64,000 nucleotides of DNA from Candidatus Nomurabacteria bacterium (GTDB lineage Bacteria; Patescibacteriota; Minisyncoccia; Phycocordibacterales; UBA9973): positions 104,031 to 168,030 of the forward strand of contig JBPOHU010000001.1 in the NCBI GenBank assembly GCA_052035195.1. Reading direction: 5' to 3'. The notes under the pieces were generated by a model. It worked only from the letters and a program-made list of their open reading frames with translations, had not been told where the DNA came from and ran no database searches. Made by a program: the position numbers and the translations under genes. Below, piece by piece: positions 36,583-45,049 of this stretch (positions are counted from its first letter, which is position 1; every line of letters starts with the position of its first letter).

Positions 36583-36614
36583 TAAAAAAACATTCAATAC
36601 AGAATGTTTTTTTA
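36583..36614. terminator. bidirectional intrinsic terminator
   Basis: AAAAAAACATTC-aataca-GAATGTTTTTTTATTT. Confidence 0.65.
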
Positions 36615-37151
36615 TTTCACCAACTCAAAAAATACTTGTTCAGTTTCTGGATCTATTTTGTCAGTTACGAAAACCATTAGTTCAGTAATGAGTCCAAAGT
36701 CTTTTTTGATATTAGTGAATAGGTGTTCATAAGGGAAAGGGGAGATCCAAACACTATTTTTAAGACACAAGAATCCTGCTTTTTTTAGAAGGTAGCGAAA
36801 GCTCTCCCTCTCGTCTTTGCGAGATTCTGGTAGGTCGAGCAATACGATACGCCATTTACCGTCCCATGCAGGACTAAGGGCACTTGTGTCTCCAAGGACT
36901 AGACTATGAACCTTCTTTTTACCTTCTTTGGTAAGGCGCGCGTACTGATTCTGTCCAGAGAAGGTTTGCTCTATGAGCCCGGTATCCCGAAGCCCTTTTA
37001 AAGAGCGAGAAATCGCGCTAGCGCCCCGCAAAGCCTTGGCGTCGTAGGGAAAGTCACCTGAGACGTTTTTGATGAGTTCAGGCACTGAAATAGCCGGTTT
37101 TTCAGCCAATAATTTCAATATTTTCTTTGAAAATCCGCCATTTGTTGACAT
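36612..37151 (-). CDS. PaaX-family-like transcriptional regulator
   Basis: N-terminal wHTH (KILKLLAEKPAISVPELIKNV...LRDTGLIEQ) and DGKWRIVLLDLPESRKDERESFRYLLKKAGFLCLKNSVWISP, matching the PaaX C-terminal pattern. Divergent from dnaK. Confidence 0.5.
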   Translation of the reverse strand: MSTNGGFSKKILKLLAEKPAISVPELIKNVSGDFPYDAKALRGASAISRSLKGLRDTGLIEQTFSGQNQYARLTKEGKKKVHSLVLGDTSALSPAWDGKWRIVLLDLPESRKDERESFRYLLKKAGFLCLKNSVWISPFPYEHLFTNIKKDFGLITELMVFVTDKIDPETEQVFFELVK

Positions 37152-37271: not shown

Positions 37272-39146
37272 ATGGGAAAAATTATTGGAATTGACCTTGG
37301 AACTACAAACAGCGCTGTTGCCATCATCGAAGGTGGACAGCCAAAAATTATAGAAAATATCGAAGGTGCACGTACTACTCCATCTATTGTGGCAGTAGGC
37401 AAAAACGGTGACCGCCTTGTTGGACTTCTTGCAAAGCGACAAGCAGTAACTAATCCTCAAAATACTATCTATGGCGTGAAGCGCTTCATGGGACACAAGT
37501 ACGATGATCATGGTATGGAAAAGGTGATCAAGACTTCTCCTTTTACTGTTTCAAAAGACAGTAACGGTGGTGCTCTCATCAAACTCGCTGACAAAGACCA
37601 ACGCCCAGAAGAAATCTCAGCAATGATTTTGCAAAAGATTAAAGCAGATGTTGAAGCAAAGCTTGGCGAAAAAGTAACTGAAGCTATCATCACTGTACCA
37701 GCGTATTTCAACGATGCACAAAGAAAGGCTACCAAAGACGCCGGTGCTATCGCAGGTCTTGATGTGAAGCGTATCATCAATGAACCAACTGCTGCAGCTC
37801 TTGCATATGGATTCAATACAAAGAAAAATGAAAAGATAGTTGTTTATGACTTTGGAGGTGGAACATTTGATGTGTCTGTTCTTGAAGTAACAGAAGATGT
37901 TATTGAAGTTAAGAGCACTGACGGAGATTCTCTCATGGGGGGCCGTGATATTGACCTCAAGATCATCAACTGGATTGCTGAAGAATTTAAAAAGCAAAGT
38001 GGAGTAGATGTATCAAAGGATCCACTAGCTCTTCAGAGACTCGATGAAGCGGCTGAAAAGGCCAAGATTGAGCTCTCTACAACACCAGAGACTGAAATCA
38101 ATATTCCATTTATTACTTCGACTGATGCAGGACCACAACACTTGCTCCTCAAACTCTCTCGCGCAAAGCTTGAAGAGTTAGCTGATGAATTCATCGCTCA
38201 ATCTATTGCTATCACAAAACGTGCTATCGAAGCTTCTCCATTTAAAAAAGAAGAAATCAATGAAATCATAATGGTTGGAGGCCAAACTCGTATGCCAAAG
38301 ATTATTGAAGAAGTACAGAAGTACTTTGGCAAAGAACCAAACCGTTCTATCAACCCAGATGAAGTTGTAGCTCTCGGAGCTGCGGTACAAGGTGGAGTAC
38401 TCCAAGGAGATGTGCGTGACGTGCTTCTTCTTGATGTGATTCCTCTTTCTCTAGGAATAGAGACTATGGGAGGAGTAGCTACAAAGCTCGTAGAACGCAA
38501 TACAACTATCCCTTCATCAAAGAGTCAGATATTCTCAACGGCTTCTGATAATCAAACTTCTGTTGATATTCATATCGTTCAAGGAGAGCGACCAATGGCA
38601 AGTGACAATAAATCTCTTGGAAGATTTGTTCTAGAAGGTATCGCTCCAGCTCCACGAGGTATTCCTCAAATCGAAGTATCTTTTGATGTTGATGCTAACG
38701 GTATTCTCGCAGTGAAAGCCAAAGACAAATCAACAGGCAAAGAACAATCTATACGTATCGAAGCTTCTTCAGGACTCTCAGCAGATGATATTGAAAAGAT
38801 GAAAAAGGATGCAGAGCTCCACGCTGAAGAAGATGCCAAGAAGAAAGAGTTAGTAGATACTAAAAATACTGCTGATCTTACAATCTTCACAGCAGAGAAA
38901 GCATTGATGGATCATAAAGACCAAATCACAGAAGATATCAAAAACTCTGTAGAAGACAAAATCAAAGCTCTTAAAACTGCAAAAGATGAAACTGATAAAT
39001 CAGCCATCGAAACTGCAATACATGAACTATCTACTGAAATGCAAAAGATAGGGGAGGCAGTTGCAAAACAAGGAGAAGAAAATAAAGAAAGCCCTCCTAA
39101 TGAACCAAAAGAAGCCGAAGCTACCGAAACTTCAGAAGAAAAATAA
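37272..39146 (+). CDS. dnaK: chaperone DnaK (Hsp70)
   Basis: [36 protein letters not shown] and full-length Hsp70 architecture. Confidence 0.95.
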
Positions 39147-39194: not shown

Positions 39195-39223
39195 TTGACA
39201 AATATACTATAATATGGTATTAT
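39195..39223 (+). promoter_or_regulatory. sigma70-type promoter TTGACA-N17-TATTAT
   Basis: TTGACAAATATACTATAATATGGTATTAT. Confidence 0.55.
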
Positions 39224-39260
39224 ATAAAAGATAACGTACCTTTTAACAAAAAATTCTTTT

Positions 39261-39377
39261 ATGAAAACTTTAGTAATTCTTTTAGTTTTATCTGTATTTG
39301 TCGTTTCTTGCGCCCGGGACATTAGTCCCTACAAGGCCGCAAATCACAGCGGCAAAGCCTATAAGTGCCACAGATAA
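39261..39377 (+). CDS. candidate 38-aa lipoprotein-like small peptide (or small RNA)
   Basis: Hand translation MKTLVILLVLSVFVVSCARDISPYKAANHSGKAYKCHR; signal peptide with a lipobox-like VVSC; no SD. Hairpin AAGGGCTGC...GCAGCCCTT at 39440-39470. Confidence 0.3.
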   Translation: MKTLVILLVLSVFVVSCARDISPYKAANHSGKAYKCHR

Positions 39378-39516
39378 AACTTGACATAGGATACCAGGCA
39401 TGCTATGCTGGTATCAGAATTTAATGGGTTAGTAAGTAAGAGGGCTGCCGTCAATAGACGTGCAGCCCTTATTTTGTTTATAGCTTTTTATATATTTTAT
39501 GCTAAAATAGTACCCA

Positions 39517-39655
39517 TGAATCACGTACGAAACCGCGGTCACGGTTACGTATAGTGGTACAAAAATTATATTTCTAAATTAGACTTTTATTAATCCTATA
39601 ATAATTAAAACAGAGAGTAGACCGCGACCTGTTTCGTACGTGATGAATAAGAAGC
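39517..39655 (+). repeat. long imperfect inverted repeat (arms 39517-39545 and 39626-39655) around an 80-nt AT-rich loop
   Basis: ATCACGTACGAAAC is perfectly inverted (14 bp) and continues with CGCGGTC on both arms. The right arm overlaps a 25-aa basic mini-ORF (MNKKRKIAAKKKRKADGKTVSLRHR, 39643-39720). Confidence 0.5.
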
Positions 39656-39725
39656 GTAAAATTGCAGCAAAAAAGAAACGTAAAGCTGACGGCAAAACAG
39701 TCTCTCTACGCCACAGATAAATAAA

Positions 39726-39757
39726 ATCCTTGAGTCAAAGCTCAAGGATTTTATTTT
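39726..39757. terminator. bidirectional intrinsic terminator
   Basis: ATCCTTGAG-tcaaag-CTCAAGGAT followed by TTTATTTT. Confidence 0.65.
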
Positions 39758-40500
39758 AAGAACCACCCTTTTATCAGAAACTCTGTCTCTTCTGGACTCT
39801 TCACTGCAATAGTATCTATACCGGTACTTTTAACCGGATAATCATTGCCACCCACATCAAGCTTATCCCCGATAAACAATATCTTTGATATTGGAATATT
39901 AAGACTTTCAGAAAACCTATTAGCCCCATAAGCCTTGTCTATTCCTTTCTTAGTGATATCTATAGAAGTCATTCCACCCATAGTCAAAGTGTATTCTGGT
40001 AGCTTAGGAGATAGAAAAGAAATAATATGTTTTCTTTTCTCCATATATGGATCCCAAAGCATTTTGTTTTTTATTGGAGCACTATTACCAAGTCCTGAAA
40101 ATGTTATCTGGCTTCCGCGATCTTCTATTATCTCTCCGAAGGTTTCTTTTTCTTGATAACCAGCTTCTTGCAAAGTAGTCTTGAGTATCTCAATAACCTT
40201 ATTTCTTTCTTCTTCTGAGATGGATTCATCATAGAGAGTTATCCATGAGTTCTCTTCGAAAGACTTAAGGGCTGTCCCGGTAGTCGGTAAAACAAAAAGA
40301 TTTTTCCAAAGCTCTTTGGGTATAAAAGATATAAGCTGTTTTTCAAATTGTTCAAACTTGCCACCAGAGATGACTGCTACTTTTTTATTTTGAAGTAAGA
40401 GACTTAGACACTCTGCCATATCCAAAGATATAGGTCCCTTACTTTGTGCAAGAGTTCCATCCATATCAAACATGACACAGTCATACTTACTTATATCCAT
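39751..40500 (-). CDS. HAD-superfamily hydrolase (subfamily IIB; Cof/phosphomannomutase-like)
   Basis: CVMFDMDGTLA DxDGT motif at the N-terminus; GDKLDVGGNDY region near the C-terminus. Confidence 0.6.
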   Translation of the reverse strand: MDISKYDCVMFDMDGTLAQSKGPISLDMAECLSLLLQNKKVAVISGGKFEQFEKQLISFIPKELWKNLFVLPTTGTALKSFEENSWITLYDESISEEERNKVIEILKTTLQEAGYQEKETFGEIIEDRGSQITFSGLGNSAPIKNKMLWDPYMEKRKHIISFLSPKLPEYTLTMGGMTSIDITKKGIDKAYGANRFSESLNIPISKILFIGDKLDVGGNDYPVKSTGIDTIAVKSPEETEFLIKGWFLK

Positions 40501-40503
40501 AAA

Positions 40504-42384
40504 TTATTTATTTTCTAAATAAGAAAGTACGGTTTTTAGTGGAATAGTAGCCGCGCCTATGTATTTGTCGGCAGCACCATAATAAATATAAAGAAGTCCT
40601 TTTCGCTCTACTACTCCACAAGGGAAAACTACATTTGAAACTACCCCTTGAGATTCATACTCAGCATCTGGCTCAAAGAATGGCGCCGCTGTTCTAGAGA
40701 GAACTATTGTCGGGTCTTTAAGATCAAGCAAAAGAGCTCCTACACGATAAACTCCACTCCAAGAAATACCATGATAGAGCATCAACCAACCTTTTTTTGT
40801 TTTAATTAATGGACAAGATAGTCCTATACGAACTGTATCCCACATACCATTTCTAGGATCTGTAATGTCTATACACTTTGTTATTTGTTCTGTTGCAAAA
40901 TCAAGAGTAGGGAAATAGTCTCCACAAATACCATTTCCGGCTCGATGGATTATCAAATATCCTTGAGAAAACTTCTCTGGAAGAACTGTCGCATCTTTAT
41001 CAGGAATACTATCTGGACTAAGTACTGCAGGAGCACTCCATTTATCCCAAGCTTTTGCTAGAAAATCTTTTACAGATATAGAAGTCGCTACTATTCTAGG
41101 TACATAGCCGTTAAAGCCTGTATACATCATATAGATGGTATTGCCTATACGAGTAAGGCGAGGATCTTCACAACCATGAGACTCAAAATCAGCCCTAGGA
41201 GAATAAACAGGATTATCAGACCGCTCATTTATGAAAAATCCATCTTTAGAGTTCGCATAACCAAGAGTTGAAACATTGTCGACTGTGGCTGCGCGGTATA
41301 GGAAATGTACTGTTCCATCTATATCTATAGCAGCCGGGTTGCATACGCCTCCAGCCTCCCAAGCCAAACCTTCTCTAGGAGAGAGGATAGGATTTTTCTT
41401 ATGTCTTATGATTTCAGGTTTTGTTGTTAGGGACTTAAGGAAAGGGTCAAGAGGGATAGTAGCTTTGGCACAAAACGTATCTGCTCCTCCATAATAAACT
41501 TCGAGCATATTTTTCTTTACTATAGCTCCAGTAGGGAAAACTATATTTGGTACTTGTCCTATTTTTTCGTAGTACCACTCAGGAGTAAGGAATGGCCCCT
41601 TGGTTCTACCTATTATTTTCTTAGGATTATTTGTTTCAAGCAGTATTGCTTCAACCCCAAACATTGGATGATCAGTCCAATAATTTTGAATATGACAATA
41701 AACAGCAAGCCAGCCACTCTTTGTAAGTACTGGTACAGCACCGAGCTCTACATGATCTTTTTCTTTTCTTCTTAGGACTATTTCGTATTTATCTTTCTCC
41801 TGATACCATTTTTGCCATTTCTTTTGATCCCAGATCTCTTCTAAAGTACTAAAATTTCTAATACAGAGCTTTGATGGACCTGGATCAGTATCGATAGTTA
41901 TAAAAGCAGTGTATTTATCTCCAATCTTTTTAGGGAAGAGTGCCATAGCCTTGGCATTGAAAGGTGTTACCAAATGCTTTGCATAAATAGTTTTCAAATC
42001 TTTACTAAGAGCTACTGCAGTTTTGATGCAATGTGGACCAAAAGGGTAGTCACTAAGAGCTGTATAAAAAATATAATAAGTGTCCCCAATCTTTGTAACA
42101 CGAGGGTCTTCACAGCCATACTTATCAAAGTCTTCACTAGGAGCAATCAAAACTGCTCTATCAGAAAAATCTTCACCATTTTTTGAAAAAGCCACACCAA
42201 TAGTTGAAATAGAAATGTGTGGCTTTCTAACAGGATCTTCATTTGACATTGCTCTATAAACTAAAGCAGTAGTTTTACTATCAATCACAACAGGACAACC
42301 ATTAAATGTTGCCTTTGATTCCCATGAATGATTTTTTAAAGGAGAAAGAATTGGATTTTTTTCGCTTCTATTTATGTTAAACAT
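40504..42384 (-). CDS. tandem GH130-like (beta-mannoside phosphorylase / DUF377) domain protein
   Basis: Two repeats of the pattern KNPILSP...YRA...GCEDPR(V/L)T(K/R)IG(D/N)T(Y/I)Y(I/M)(F/M)YT, typical of GH130. Confidence 0.6.
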   Translation of the reverse strand: MFNINRSEKNPILSPLKNHSWESKATFNGCPVVIDSKTTALVYRAMSNEDPVRKPHISISTIGVAFSKNGEDFSDRAVLIAPSEDFDKYGCEDPRVTKIGDTYYIFYTALSDYPFGPHCIKTAVALSKDLKTIYAKHLVTPFNAKAMALFPKKIGDKYTAFITIDTDPGPSKLCIRNFSTLEEIWDQKKWQKWYQEKDKYEIVLRRKEKDHVELGAVPVLTKSGWLAVYCHIQNYWTDHPMFGVEAILLETNNPKKIIGRTKGPFLTPEWYYEKIGQVPNIVFPTGAIVKKNMLEVYYGGADTFCAKATIPLDPFLKSLTTKPEIIRHKKNPILSPREGLAWEAGGVCNPAAIDIDGTVHFLYRAATVDNVSTLGYANSKDGFFINERSDNPVYSPRADFESHGCEDPRLTRIGNTIYMMYTGFNGYVPRIVATSISVKDFLAKAWDKWSAPAVLSPDSIPDKDATVLPEKFSQGYLIIHRAGNGICGDYFPTLDFATEQITKCIDITDPRNGMWDTVRIGLSCPLIKTKKGWLMLYHGISWSGVYRVGALLLDLKDPTIVLSRTAAPFFEPDAEYESQGVVSNVVFPCGVVERKGLLYIYYGAADKYIGAATIPLKTVLSYLENK

Positions 42385-42423
42385 ATGTAAAGAGTATATA
42401 TTAAAAAAATTATTTTGTATTTT

Positions 42424-43518
42424 TTATTCTGTGTATACCAACCAAGAAAGTACATCTTGAAGTGGAGCTTGCGCAACACAAGTATGCATATCACCTCCAC
42501 CATAATAAACAAGTAACATTTCTTCACGTACTACTGCACCACAAACGTACACAATACCCGGCTTACCATCATTTTCATACCAACAATCTGGAGTAAGCAA
42601 TGGTCCAGGACTTCGTGCTATAACTTTTGAAGGATTATTTATATCTAGAAGCATTACTCCTACTTTGTATTTTTCTGATTCATGTTTTTCTACTGCATGA
42701 TAGAGAACGAGCCAGCCTTTTTCTGTTTTGATAGGAGGGCATCCTGCTCCACGAAGCCATGTATCCCAAGAATCTCTTTCGTGTCTTTTGAATTTACTTT
42801 CTATTTTTTTTGTTCCTTTAGATAAGTCTTCTAATCTCTCAATATAATCAACCTGCACAGTAGGCGAAATGCTGTGAAGTATCGCAAACTTACCATCTAT
42901 TTTCTCTGGAAAAAGAACCCAGTTTTTATGTATTTCTCCTTCGGGGGATATAAGAATAGGTTTTTTCCAATTCCATTTCCCAGCAATAAAATCTTTTTCT
43001 AAAATAGAACTCACTCCAATACGAATAAAATCCCAACCGTCAAAAGCGTTGAAAGTTAGATAGAGTGTATCTTCTATGCGTACGAGTCTAGGATCTTCTG
43101 CTCCACCCCAAGATCCACCAGAGGGATAAAGTACTGGGTCATAACGATACCTTTCATCAGAGAGACCGCGAATATTTTCCAAAAAGAAAACAGGATAATC
43201 ACCACGCTCTTCAAAATTTATTCCGTTTGTACTCTTTGAATATCCAAGTCTAGAAACACCATCAGTTCCTATTGCTCTATAAAGAAGATGAACATTGTGA
43301 TCATCATCTTTATAAGCAGCAGGATTGAAAACTCCGCACGCCTCCCATTCATTGTGAGACTGAGGAGACATTACTGGATTTTGATGAAACTTTTTTAAAG
43401 AAAAAGGTTTCTCTCGAGACTTTTGAAAACGCTCTCGCAAACGCAGAAATAAAACAACTAAAACAAAAGCAAATATAACTATCTCTAAAAATAGACGAAC
43501 GTCATGCTCAGTTATCAT
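42424..43518 (-). CDS. GH130-like glycoside hydrolase/phosphorylase with an N-terminal membrane anchor
   Basis: TM helix then NPVMSP...GVFNPAAY...LLYRAIG...GAEDPRLVRIEDTLYLTFNA. Confidence 0.6.
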   Translation of the reverse strand: MITEHDVRLFLEIVIFAFVLVVLFLRLRERFQKSREKPFSLKKFHQNPVMSPQSHNEWEACGVFNPAAYKDDDHNVHLLYRAIGTDGVSRLGYSKSTNGINFEERGDYPVFFLENIRGLSDERYRYDPVLYPSGGSWGGAEDPRLVRIEDTLYLTFNAFDGWDFIRIGVSSILEKDFIAGKWNWKKPILISPEGEIHKNWVLFPEKIDGKFAILHSISPTVQVDYIERLEDLSKGTKKIESKFKRHERDSWDTWLRGAGCPPIKTEKGWLVLYHAVEKHESEKYKVGVMLLDINNPSKVIARSPGPLLTPDCWYENDGKPGIVYVCGAVVREEMLLVYYGGGDMHTCVAQAPLQDVLSWLVYTE

Positions 43519-43531
43519 TTAGAAAAACCCT

Positions 43532-43911
43532 TTATGCTTTTTTTGAGCTTGCTTTTTTAGTTCGACCGTATGAGTCCTGTACGCGAACAATATCAGATTC
43601 TTCAAAATGCCCTGTGGCTATTTCGAGTATTTGAAGGGGAGTTTCAGCGATGATTCTGTGGAGCGTTTTCGGGGGTACTGTAAACTCCTTACCAGGCTTT
43701 GCTACGTATTTCTTTTTACCAACAACAACAAATCCTGTGCCAGAAATGATGTGCCAAAATTCTGCTCTATCATGATGATATTGAAGTGAGAGAGATGCTC
43801 CTGCTTTTACGTGTATTATTTTTATAGTTGAAGGTTCGTTATAGGTATAGCGATTAAAAAATCCCCAAGGTCTCTTTTCTGTATAGAAATTTTTGAGAGA
43901 ATTTTTCATAT
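43532..43911 (-). CDS. cupin-domain protein (mannose-6-phosphate isomerase type II C-terminal-like)
   Basis: SLQYHHDRAEFWHIISGTG...PPKTLHRI cupin motifs. Start MKNSLKNF at 43911. The finder's extension to 44347 overlaps dnaJ on the other strand and is rejected. Confidence 0.55.
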
Positions 43912-43984
43912 AAATATGTACCAAGTGTACCATACAAAAATCAAAAAATATGGTATAATACCTGTGTAAAAGTGGAGAAATACT

Positions 43985-45049
43985 ATGAGCAAGGATTACT
44001 ATAAAACATTGGGAGTAGAAAAGGGCGCATCGAAAGATGAAATAAAAAAAGCCTTCCATAAAATGGCTCACAAATACCACCCTGATAAAAGCGGTGGAGA
44101 TGAAGCCAAATTCAAAGAGGTAAATGAAGCCTACCAAACACTCTCTGACGACCAAAAAAGAGCTAGTTATGATCAGTTTGGTTCTGATGGCCCTCAAATG
44201 GGTGGTTTTGGCGGTGGAGGATTCGATGGTTTTGACTTTAGTGGTTTTGGCCAAGGTCAAGGCGGTTTTGAGTTCGACATAGGAGATATGTTCGGAGGTA
44301 TGTTTGGCGGTGGAAGAACACGCAAACCTCGTGGTAACGATCTTCAAACTTCAATGACTATAGACTTCAAAGAGTCTGTCTTTGGTGTTGATAAAGAATT
44401 AAAAGTTACCAAACCTTCAACATGCAACACTTGTAAAGGTGATGGTGCTACTCCTGGAACAAAACTTGAAACTTGTAGTACTTGTAACGGCGCTGGTGTT
44501 GTGAGAAATATTCAACGCACCATACTTGGCTCTATTGCTACAAATCAAACCTGTAGTAAGTGTAATGGTGCAGGTAAAATACCAAAAGATCCTTGCAAGA
44601 CCTGTCGTGGTACAGGAGTAATGAACGACACTAGAACTATCAAAGTCTCTATTCCATCAGGGATACAAAACGGCGAGACACTACGACTCTCTGGTATGGG
44701 AGAAGCTATCCAAGGTGGACCATCAGGAGACCTATATGTACATATGTCTGTTGCTCCACACAAAACTATTTCAAGAAAAGGAACAGACTTATATACCAAT
44801 CTAGATATTAAGCTAACTGACGCCCTACTCGGAGCACAATACTCTATCGAGACACTCGATGGTAATGAAGTTATTTCTATACCAGCTGGTACCAAAATAG
44901 GTAGTACTGTCATAATCAAAGAAAAAGGCGTACCACTATCTAAATCAAAAAGAGGAAACTTTATCGTACAACTAAATATCAAACTCCCAGAAAAACTTTC
45001 AAAAGAAGCAAAAGCAATAATCGAAGAGCTTAAAAAGCAGGGGATATAA
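43985..45049 (+). CDS. dnaJ: chaperone DnaJ
   Basis: J-domain with HPD, a G/F-rich region and four CxxCxGxG zinc-finger repeats. Confidence 0.9.
   Translation: MSKDYYKTLGVEKGASKDEIKKAFHKMAHKYHPDKSGGDEAKFKEVNEAYQTLSDDQKRASYDQFGSDGPQMGGFGGGGFDGFDFSGFGQGQGGFEFDIGDMFGGMFGGGRTRKPRGNDLQTSMTIDFKESVFGVDKELKVTKPSTCNTCKGDGATPGTKLETCSTCNGAGVVRNIQRTILGSIATNQTCSKCNGAGKIPKDPCKTCRGTGVMNDTRTIKVSIPSGIQNGETLRLSGMGEAIQGGPSGDLYVHMSVAPHKTISRKGTDLYTNLDIKLTDALLGAQYSIETLDGNEVISIPAGTKIGSTVIIKEKGVPLSKSKRGNFIVQLNIKLPEKLSKEAKAIIEELKKQGI

Follow-up and report, generated by a model that had tools for sequence, protein, structure and literature searches.

What is a set of four genes predicted to process β-mannosides doing between dnaK and dnaJ in the genome of a Candidatus Nomurabacteria bacterium? 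The genes lie in a stretch of 64,000 nucleotides (assembly GCA_052035195.1, contig JBPOHU010000001.1, positions 104,031 to 168,030 of the forward strand), the whole of which is called the window below. They encode a cupin, a membrane-tethered protein of glycoside hydrolase family 130 (GH130), a second protein with two GH130 modules in tandem, and a putative phosphohexomutase of the HAD class. A reading of the sequence alone (hereafter the sequence-only reading) had taken them for an inserted island that perhaps salvages host glycans. We favour, with moderate confidence, a joint reading in which this cassette is a native, old and vertically inherited operon of Paceibacteria (Parcubacteria) that would provide a self-contained cytoplasmic route between β-1,2-mannosides and fructose 6-phosphate (Fru-6-P), with no nucleotide sugar involved. 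The cassette occurs throughout the lineage: a minimum of 587 species-level genomes of the Candidate Phyla Radiation (CPR) carry it.

Layout of the cassette

Four co-oriented minus-strand genes fill positions 39751-43909 and are flanked by dnaK and dnaJ on the other strand, an arrangement already described in the sequence-only reading and confirmed by the open reading frames (ORFs) and their Pfam matches. The features are as follows:

37272-39146, plus strand: dnaK (Pfam), flank of the cassette
39719-39756, no strand assigned: hairpin (inverted repeat I5) with 16-nt arms that are 100% complementary, a 6-nt loop and flanking T/A runs; overlaps the stop codon of the HAD gene
39751-40500, minus strand: predicted HAD-IIB phosphohexomutase, 249 aa, with the motif DMDGT; closes the cassette
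40504-42384, minus strand: tandem GH130 protein, 626 aa, made up of domN and domC
40504-41418, minus strand: domC, GH130 module, residues 323-626 of the tandem protein; PDB matches 7fip and 9fj8
41419-42384, minus strand: domN, GH130 module, residues 1-322 of the tandem protein; PDB matches 9fj8 and 7fip
42424-43518, minus strand: TMGH, membrane-tethered GH130 protein, 364 aa; one N-terminal transmembrane (TM) helix at about residues 7-27, then a β-propeller
43532-43909, minus strand: cupin standing alone, of the kind found as C-terminal domain in type II mannose-6-phosphate isomerases; opens the cassette
43910-43984, no strand assigned: divergent intergenic region between cupin and dnaJ, 75 bp
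43985-45049, plus strand: dnaJ (Pfam), flank of the cassette

The start of the cupin had been placed at 43911, which is 2 nt out of frame; the in-frame starts are 43909, giving 125 aa, the length of its homologues, or an alternative ATG at 43933, giving the 133 aa of the NCBI record. The window is identical in sequence to contig CAYIYI010000001.1 of assembly GCA_964367675.1. The spacers within the cassette measure 13 bp (cupin/TMGH), 39 bp (TMGH/tandem) and 3 bp (tandem/HAD), and such spacings are consistent with a single transcript. The 75-bp gap would have to carry both the cassette promoter on the minus strand and the dnaJ promoter on the plus strand; it contains a TGgTATAAT-like box at about 43950-43960 (plus strand), and this promoter-like box recurs at 39198-39224 as the direct repeat D6. 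At the other end, the hairpin at 39719-39756 probably terminates transcription from both sides, serving the cassette as well as a convergent micro-ORF described further below. Upstream of dnaK, Pfam identifies grpE and a PaaX-like gene, and the closest homologues of the DnaJ of the window are labelled Nomurabacteria, Paceibacterota or Minisyncoccia.

Family assignments

GH130 enzymes are well studied and are described as nearly all single-module proteins, either cytoplasmic or secreted. Searches with Pfam, NCBIfam and the PDB uphold all four earlier family calls, namely a HAD phosphatase or phosphomannomutase (PMM)-like protein, two GH130 domains within 626 aa, a membrane GH130 and a cupin. 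The GH130 assignment in particular is supported by profile search: the tandem protein matches Glyco_hydro_130 (PF04041) at 1.1e-87 and 294.4 bits over two stretches, and TMGH at 4.3e-41 and 141.3 bits, against a cut-off of 26. The top NCBIfam model for both proteins is β-1,2-mannobiose phosphorylase (NF052550), with scores below its equivalog cut-off. All three modules have Teth514_1788 and Teth514_1789 as their best solved relatives: domC matches 7fip at 1.6e-55 and 9fj8 at 4.3e-52, domN matches 9fj8 at 3.5e-37 and 7fip at 5.4e-36, and the same two entries are the best PDB matches of TMGH.

AlphaFold2 models of the tandem protein (predicted local distance difference test score, pLDDT, 93.1; predicted template modelling score, pTM, 0.85) and of TMGH (pLDDT 88.1, with a helix at residues 4-36) recover only GH130 structures as top Foldseek matches. 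Teth514_1788/1789 lead in both cases, with target template modelling scores (TMt) of 0.87-0.89 for the tandem protein and at 1e-27 for TMGH. Enzymes of GT108 follow far behind, with E-values of about 1e-8 to 1e-9 and 12-15% identity, and neither protein shows a close relationship to that family. Profiles and models alike thus point to membership of both proteins in CAZy GH130 / PF04041, with a predicted five-bladed β-propeller fold; we found no solved structure that spans both propellers of the tandem protein.

The HAD protein matches the Pfam models Hydrolase_3 (4.9e-13) and PMM (4.9e-12; 46.6 bits against a cut-off of 22.4) and the NCBIfam HAD-IIB model TIGR01484 (65.1 bits against 41.8), and its DMDGT at residues 12-16 corresponds to the DxDxT nucleophile motif. 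Its best PDB match, over the full length, is the α-phosphoglucomutase of Lactococcus lactis (4bnd, 6.4e-40), followed by eukaryotic PMMs at 1e-14 to 1e-7. Profiles, motif and the 4bnd match together identify it as a predicted HAD-IIB phosphohexomutase of the PgmH / eukaryotic-PMM type. Specificity for mannose 1-phosphate (Man-1-P) and mannose 6-phosphate (Man-6-P) is favoured by the operon context, that is, by linkage to GH130 modules and a phosphomannose isomerase (PMI).

The cupin matches MannoseP_isomer (PF01050; 4.8e-21, 75.5 bits against a cut-off of 23.6) and also Cupin_2, and retains the metal-ligand His/Glu motifs QYHHDRAEFWH and LHRI, features that predict a type II PMI cupin domain. 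Its best solved relatives are the 113-116-aa cupin Man-6-P isomerases 7zvm and 7zvy, at about 3-6e-9 (7zvm 5.9e-9). Of the model for bifunctional GDP-mannose pyrophosphorylase/PMI (GMP/PMI; TIGR01479) it matches only the C-terminal positions 359-467, with a score far under the cut-off; as it has no nucleotidyl-transferase domain, it could not itself produce GDP-mannose.

Active sites of the three GH130 modules

Phosphorylases of GH130 are characterized by a proton-donor Asp, an Arg/His pair that binds phosphate (R168/H231 in Uhgb_MP) and the lack of a signal peptide (PMC7660257, Li et al. 2020), while β-1,2 specificity goes with a Glu beside the catalytic Asp and a Lys at the position of Uhgb_MP R150 / BT3780 K199 (PMC4599007, PMC7660257). 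A change from basic to carboxylic residues at the phosphate site turns a phosphorylase into a hydrolase (PMC4599007), and an Arg 'switch' in the fold has been located at R202 of Uhgb_MS, at the base of loop L2 (PMC12814180). With these landmarks, the modules were aligned with both Teth514 sequences and residues were counted in 117 homologues of the tandem protein and 95 of TMGH. The catalytic Asp is D93 in domN, D407 in domC and D142 in TMGH, and each is accompanied by an invariant β-1,2 E/K pair (E92/K145, E406/K463 and E141/K198, respectively). All modules keep the EDPR motif, the Arg of YR, the Lys (in NKD, NKN or AKA) and the C-terminal Asp, so that β-1,2-mannosyl recognition is expected in every one of them. 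They share 31-38% identity with one another and with Teth514_1788, and are therefore old paralogues.

It is at the phosphate site that the modules part company. In domC the residues D407, K463, D464, H480, R481, H538, Y546, R547 and D606 are invariant in the 117 homologues, and position 519 is K or R. This module thus has the predicted active site of a canonical β-1,2-mannoside phosphorylase, and is the only one of the three to show the complete set of phosphorylase features.

The other tandem module, domN, has T163/V164 at the position of the switch Arg and F242-G243 where Tyr-Arg is expected. Its position 211 (H or Q) aligns with R242 of Uhgb_MS, as a separate alignment confirmed for H211, and of the R/H phosphate pair the module retains the His (H231) and not the Arg. 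Two glutamates, E213 and E245, are invariant in the 117 homologues and lie 2 or 3 residues past the lost basic positions; on account of these glutamates in the phosphate site we read domN as most likely hydrolase-like, or at least as not a phosphorylase. When a 68-aa portion of domN was used as a query against the PDB, the five best matches were all phosphorylases, and the BT3780/BACOVA hydrolases were not among them. Mean column entropy is 1.01 for domN and 1.05 for domC, which amounts to equal constraint.

In TMGH the switch position is S216 in 89 of the 95 homologues. It keeps H215, H274 and K198, with R256 displaced by one position and K285 present; its phosphate site is thus predicted to be non-canonical, having the His (H274) of the R/H pair without the Arg. 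Directly before the catalytic EDPR, TMGH also carries an invariant, family-specific Gly-rich insertion (YDPV.YPSGGSWGG, residues about 126-139; pLDDT 65-70, predicted flexible). This insertion might compensate for the absent phosphate-binding Arg.

Topology and N-terminal variants of TMGH

In 98 homologues of TMGH, the 15 residues before the helix contain on average 0.14 K+R and the 15 residues after it 4.63, and the C-terminal flank is the richer in 97 of the 98. By the positive-inside rule, the catalytic domain of TMGH would be cytoplasmic and tethered to the membrane, placing the propeller at the inner membrane face. The other three cassette proteins have no signal peptides. In some Patescibacteria a soluble N-terminal domain of about 280 aa takes the place of the TM helix (P0156, P0157, P0198, P0199, P0201, P0206, P0209 and P0212). 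This domain shows degenerate GH130-like strand motifs and no Pfam match, and its presence makes these a second kind of two-propeller GH130 protein. Among library representatives clustered at 50% identity, only some twelve were full-length tandem proteins, and many others, of about 600 aa, combined a degenerate N-domain with GH130.

Distribution and conservation

The figure of at least 587 loci comes from a scan of one genome per GTDB species; 80 species-representative loci were fetched and 7 further lineages looked up singly. Wherever the contig is long enough, these 80 loci and 7 lineages show the order cupin - TM-GH130 - tandem GH130 - HAD on one strand. The exceptions are 12 of the 80 loci, in which a histidine kinase gene precedes the HAD gene, and three in which the cupin is displaced or was not found. 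The inserted gene separates the tandem GH130 gene from the HAD gene and encodes a sensor kinase (HisKA/HATPase_c, about 524 aa; L007/L016, 11891-13465; L070; L078; and others), and its presence inside the cassette hints at regulated expression or activity. Full-length homologues of the tandem protein itself number in the thousands (54-100% identity), and those with a named source are all from Patescibacteria, Parcubacteria or Paceibacterota. Many of the species-representative metagenome-assembled genomes that bear the cassette (L015-L094) are titled 'uncultured Candidatus Saccharibacteria bacterium', which looks like a generic submission label and not like a true assignment to Saccharibacteria.

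These bacteria have few metabolic genes and yet keep this set in the same order, which suggests that β-1,2-mannoside metabolism matters to them. Elsewhere in the lineage, the cassette is most often followed downstream by a gene for peptidase S11 and genes for pilin-like proteins (32-33 of about 50 loci). In none of the loci examined is a transporter or secreted enzyme found in or beside the cassette, and no glycosyltransferase recurs among the neighbours; a Pfam scan of 30 other ORFs of the window likewise found housekeeping genes only, with no GDP-mannose pathway, glycosyltransferase or sugar importer.

The families of the individual parts are known. Our literature search found no description of what the sequences indicate to be a fixed four-gene operon across a CPR class, and nothing on GH130 in Parcubacteria/Patescibacteria beyond a one-line count in a Microgenomates genome. 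Nor did it yield a heterologous GH130-GH130 fusion such as the one predicted here, joining a canonical phosphorylase half to one whose phosphate pocket carries carboxylates, a GH130 tethered to the membrane with a predicted cytoplasmic orientation, or a fixed link of GH130 to a putative cupin PMI and HAD mutase. In a published survey, GH130-GH130 proteins accounted for 4 of 6308 sequences, with both modules from the same cluster, and more than 99% of phosphorylases were monomodular (PMC7660257). The sequence-only reading was thus right that a tandem fusion is unusual for the described family, but within this lineage it is the rule.

A predicted route between β-1,2-mannosides and Fru-6-P

In the reading that we favour, domC would phosphorolyse β-1,2-mannosides reversibly to α-Man-1-P, the PgmH-type HAD mutase would convert Man-1-P to Man-6-P, and the cupin isomerase would convert Man-6-P to Fru-6-P. 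The whole path would be reversible and would need ATP or a nucleotide sugar at no step. The remaining two modules could widen the substrate range or alter the chemistry: domN would probably hydrolyse a β-1,2-mannosyl bond refractory to the phosphorylase, and TMGH would probably act on a membrane-proximal substrate or on another chain length, a division of substrates for which the chain-length split within the Teth514 pair is a precedent. As the gene set is a classical catabolic one, the net flux would be degradation of a cytoplasmic or membrane-proximal β-1,2-mannoside, either self-made or acquired, the source of which is not encoded in the cassette. The conversion of β-mannosides to Man-1-P and Man-6-P proposed in the sequence-only reading thereby stands in part: the phosphorylase, PMM and PMI families are all represented, but of the GH130 modules domC alone shows a canonical phosphorylase site.

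Several points weigh against this reading. Each enzymatic activity is predicted from sequence, and the flux direction, transcription of the four genes together and the one-time relocation proposed below are likewise predictions. In this fold, phosphorylase and transferase activity are not reliably predicted by active-site residues alone (PMC10913872), and the R202A/H mutants of Uhgb_MS act non-intuitively (PMC12814180). The 450-bit cut-off of NF052550 is missed by the tandem protein (395.1, the sum of two stretches) and by TMGH (192.6). The equation of domN E213/E245 with the catalytic-base residues E227/E268 of BT3780 is a candidate equivalence that may hold. The closest solved relative of the HAD protein, 4bnd, is a phosphoglucomutase, and a preference of the HAD protein itself for mannose over glucose is a prediction. 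Finally, neither a transporter, nor a kinase for released mannose, nor a source of β-1,2-mannosides was identified.

The alternative that survives best, a tentative possibility, is an internal cycle like that of mannogen, in which a β-1,2-mannan or mannoside would be made from Fru-6-P via Man-6-P and Man-1-P as a reserve or membrane-associated glycan. TMGH, and/or domC running in reverse phosphorolysis, would then act as the synthase and the tandem enzyme would degrade the product, in parallel with the division of labour among the GT108 enzymes of Leishmania. Wide conservation of the operon, in at least 587 species, with no importer or secreted enzyme nearby, together with the tethering of one module at the cytoplasmic side of the membrane, keeps this alternative alive. 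It also accords with the differentiated phosphate sites of three anciently diverged paralogous modules (31-38% identical), with PMI and PMM serving both directions, and with the ability of all known β-1,2 GH130 phosphorylases to make oligomers from Man-1-P, with weak GDP-mannose transferase activity (PMC12814180). However, the search of the cassette and its surroundings turned up neither a glycosyltransferase nor GDP-mannose pyrophosphorylase, the phosphate concentration normal for cytoplasm disfavours reverse phosphorolysis, and loss of the R202 equivalent abolished the transferase activity of Uhgb_MS (PMC12814180). The fold is also far nearer to GH130_6 (1e-27) than to GT108 (about 1e-9), and we found no report in the literature of a β-1,2-mannan from these bacteria.

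A broader and rather doubtful form of this idea is that Paceibacteria maintain an endogenous pool of β-1,2-mannan or mannoside, either a counterpart of mannogen or a glycan anchored in the membrane, whose synthesis and recycling would use no nucleotide sugars; TMGH would be synthase-like, domC the canonical phosphorylase, and domN a hydrolase-type module that arose anew and is joined to domC. An endogenous substrate would suggest that these bacteria have a storage or envelope glycan that has so far gone unrecognised, and the operon, given such a pool, would serve the ultra-small Paceibacteria, with their minimal metabolism, as a core system for carbon buffering or for the envelope.

It is improbable that domN and/or TMGH are non-catalytic, that is, pseudo-enzymes for carbohydrate binding or scaffolding that supply a dimer partner. 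GH130 enzymes are dimers or hexamers whose active site is shaped by loops of the neighbouring subunit (PMC12814180), the pTM of 0.85 for the tandem model implies fixed packing of the two propellers, some relatives swap the TM helix for the degenerate, Pfam-negative GH130-like domain of about 280 aa, and both modules are without the R of the R/H phosphate pair, all of which would suit such a role. Against it, the catalytic Asp, the -1/+1 residues (R44/R81, E92/E141, K145/K198, D302/D343) and E213/E245 are invariant in 95-117 homologues, and domN is as constrained as domC; invariant catalytic and subsite residues under equal constraint fit an active site rather than a scaffold.

Origin of the position between dnaK and dnaJ

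In composition, the cassette is in line with its surroundings: its GC content is 0.357-0.376 against 0.372+/-0.033 for the window, its GC3 is 0.22-0.30 against 0.275+/-0.069, and its codon usage (Jensen-Shannon distance) lies inside the background range of the window. The comparison of GC and codon usage thus gives no foreign signal. At its borders we found no mobility genes, integrase, tRNA or Rfam features, the tRNAs of the window being 35 kb away, and a search for flanking repeats as island borders returned only short, low-identity repeats at chance level. The inverted repeat noted at one edge in the sequence-only reading is real (39520-39644), but it is a separate 125-bp insertion into the start of the micro-ORF and not an island boundary.

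The order dnaK-cassette-dnaJ is not universal in the lineage, a point on which the sequence-only reading is supported. Two loci, L096 and L097 (DnaK 82-85% and DnaJ 70-75% identical to those of the window), have the order grpE-paaX-dnaK-microORF-dnaJ-aspS with no cassette at the site, and so the cassette reached this position at some point; in the window it sits between the 25-aa micro-ORF (39643-39720) and dnaJ. Adjacency of the cassette to dnaK and/or dnaJ is confined to relatives of the window, whose tandem proteins are 80% (L005), 82% (L015), 58% (L013), 57% (L095) and 68% (L006, on the dnaJ side only) identical to that of the window. In a neighbour-joining tree of 87 tandem proteins these dnaK/dnaJ-linked cassettes form one clade. 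Monophyly together with divergence down to 57% identity argues for an old internal relocation and not for acquisition. The simplest history would be one old relocation of the whole operon into the gap between micro-ORF and dnaJ in the ancestor of the clade, followed by vertical descent.

A genomic island or mobile element is therefore rejected in view of the native composition, the lack of border repeats, tRNAs and mobility genes, and the occurrence of the cassette in 587 species or more, and the claim of a foreign or recent insertion falls with it, given also the same gene order across Paceibacteria. That a horizontally acquired island in the dnaK-dnaJ pair salvages host or environmental β-mannosides for a reduced genome is accordingly very unlikely: phosphorylase, PMM and PMI do form the classical catabolic set, and relatives with dnaK-microORF-dnaJ do lack the cassette there, but, beyond the evidence just given, neither an uptake system nor an extracellular enzyme occurs at the loci examined and the membrane GH130 is predicted to face the cytoplasm, leaving host-glycan salvage with no direct support.

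The spacer downstream of dnaK and the PaaX_M gene

In the window the spacer between dnaK and the cassette is 600 bp long; it is much shorter in relatives, measuring about 280 bp in L005 and only about 100 bp in L013. The spacer of the window contains a micro-ORF (39643-39720, plus strand) for a conserved, highly basic peptide of 25 aa, MNKKRK[IV]AAKKKRK[AK]DGKTV[SN]LRHR, with its own -10 box and terminator. This micro-ORF is always found just downstream of dnaK (L005 at 12738 on the minus strand, L095 at about 3190, L096 at 7703, L097 at 7851) and is not annotated in the public gene calls examined. The many synonymous differences between lineages indicate selection on the peptide.

The inverted repeat at 39520-39644 (plus strand) has perfect 14-nt arms that extend further, and an RNA fold z of -4.1. 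It is a palindromic element of about 125 bp, with arms ATCACGTACGAAACCGCGGTC / GACCGCGACCTGTTTCGTACGTGAT and an AT-rich centre, that sits exactly on the start codon of the micro-ORF. The orthologous loci L005, L096 and L097 are without it, and its flanks reconstruct to CCC ATG AAT AAG with a duplication of 2 bp (GA) or 4 bp (ATGA). A short upstream ORF, M[N/D]HVRNRGHGYV, lies within the element, whose 3' arm restores the ATG. A second copy lies on an unrelated contig (L113, about 700-830), on the start codon of a DsbA-like ORF with flanks ATGG...GG; in a metagenome scan with the inverted-repeat arm, 21 of 22 matches were unrelated and L113 alone was homologous. There is no Rfam match for the element, which may be akin to a miniature inverted-repeat transposable element or may be a translational-control hairpin.

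Nearer to dnaK, a strong promoter-like site at 39195-39223 (plus strand; TTGACA-17-TATTAT with TG) precedes a lipoprotein-like ORF of 38 aa (39261-39377, MKTLVILLVLSVFVVSC...). A second promoter-like site (39381-39409, plus strand) is followed by a GC-rich hairpin with a T-run at about 39443-39478, possibly a small RNA. On the other side of dnaK, a protein with a PaaX_M domain and a helix-turn-helix is encoded divergently (36612-37151, minus strand) between grpE and dnaK, a position that it occupies in all the relatives inspected (L001, L005, L013, L095-L097). Its role may be that of a local heat-shock regulator that replaces HrcA.

Comparison with known systems

The HAD protein and the cupin have known counterparts. 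The HAD protein shares the HAD-IIB fold and the DxDxT motif with PgmH of Lactococcus lactis (4bnd, matched over the full length) and with eukaryotic PMM1/PMM2. The cupin resembles both the small cupin Man-6-P isomerases (7zvm, 7zvy) and the C-terminal domain of GMP/PMI enzymes of the ManC/AlgA type in PF01050 membership, length (about 115-125 aa) and His/Glu motifs; unlike the ManC/AlgA-type enzymes, it has no nucleotidyl-transferase domain.

With the GT108 proteins MTP1-7 of the Leishmania mannogen cycle, and with the dual-activity GH130 enzyme Uhgb_MS, the GH130 modules share the five-bladed propeller and the reaction centre. GT108/Uhgb_MS paralogues differ at the Arg/His switch, and β-1,2-mannan synthesis and phosphorolysis are split between them (PMC12814180, PMC10913872). 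The cassette modules vary at the same switch, with R481 in domC, S216 in TMGH and T163/V164 in domN, and such natural variants would be useful for engineering phosphorylases into synthases. In contrast to GT108, the likeness in fold is weak, a Ser/Thr switch is not a described state, and the cassette has no enzyme forming GDP-mannose. To our knowledge, mannogen is not known in bacteria.

The β-1,2-mannosidases of GH130_3 (BT3780, BACOVA_03624; PDB 5a7v, 3qc2) are a further comparison for domN, which likewise has the proton-donor Asp, the E/K pair and the -1 subsite, lacks the basic phosphate ligands and has carboxylates in that region. Unlike them, domN is nearer to the GH130_6 phosphorylases in sequence and fold, retains the R/H-pair His and lacks a signal peptide. 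Its predicted hydrolase-like character is most likely a derivation independent of GH130_3.

Closest in sequence and fold is the pair Teth514_1788/1789 of Thermoanaerobacter sp. X-514 (GH130_6; PDB 9fj8/9gph and 7fip), a 1,2-β-oligomannan phosphorylase and a β-1,2-mannobiose phosphorylase, which are the best match of all three modules (33-37% identity, TMt 0.81-0.89). They too are adjacent paralogues with the same catalytic Asp and β-1,2 E/K pair, and domC shares every phosphate ligand with them. The cassette differs in that domN and TMGH are without the Arg of the R/H pair and the equivalog cut-off is missed, in its linkage to a putative cupin PMI and HAD mutase, and in having three modules, two of them fused in one chain and the third carrying a TM anchor.

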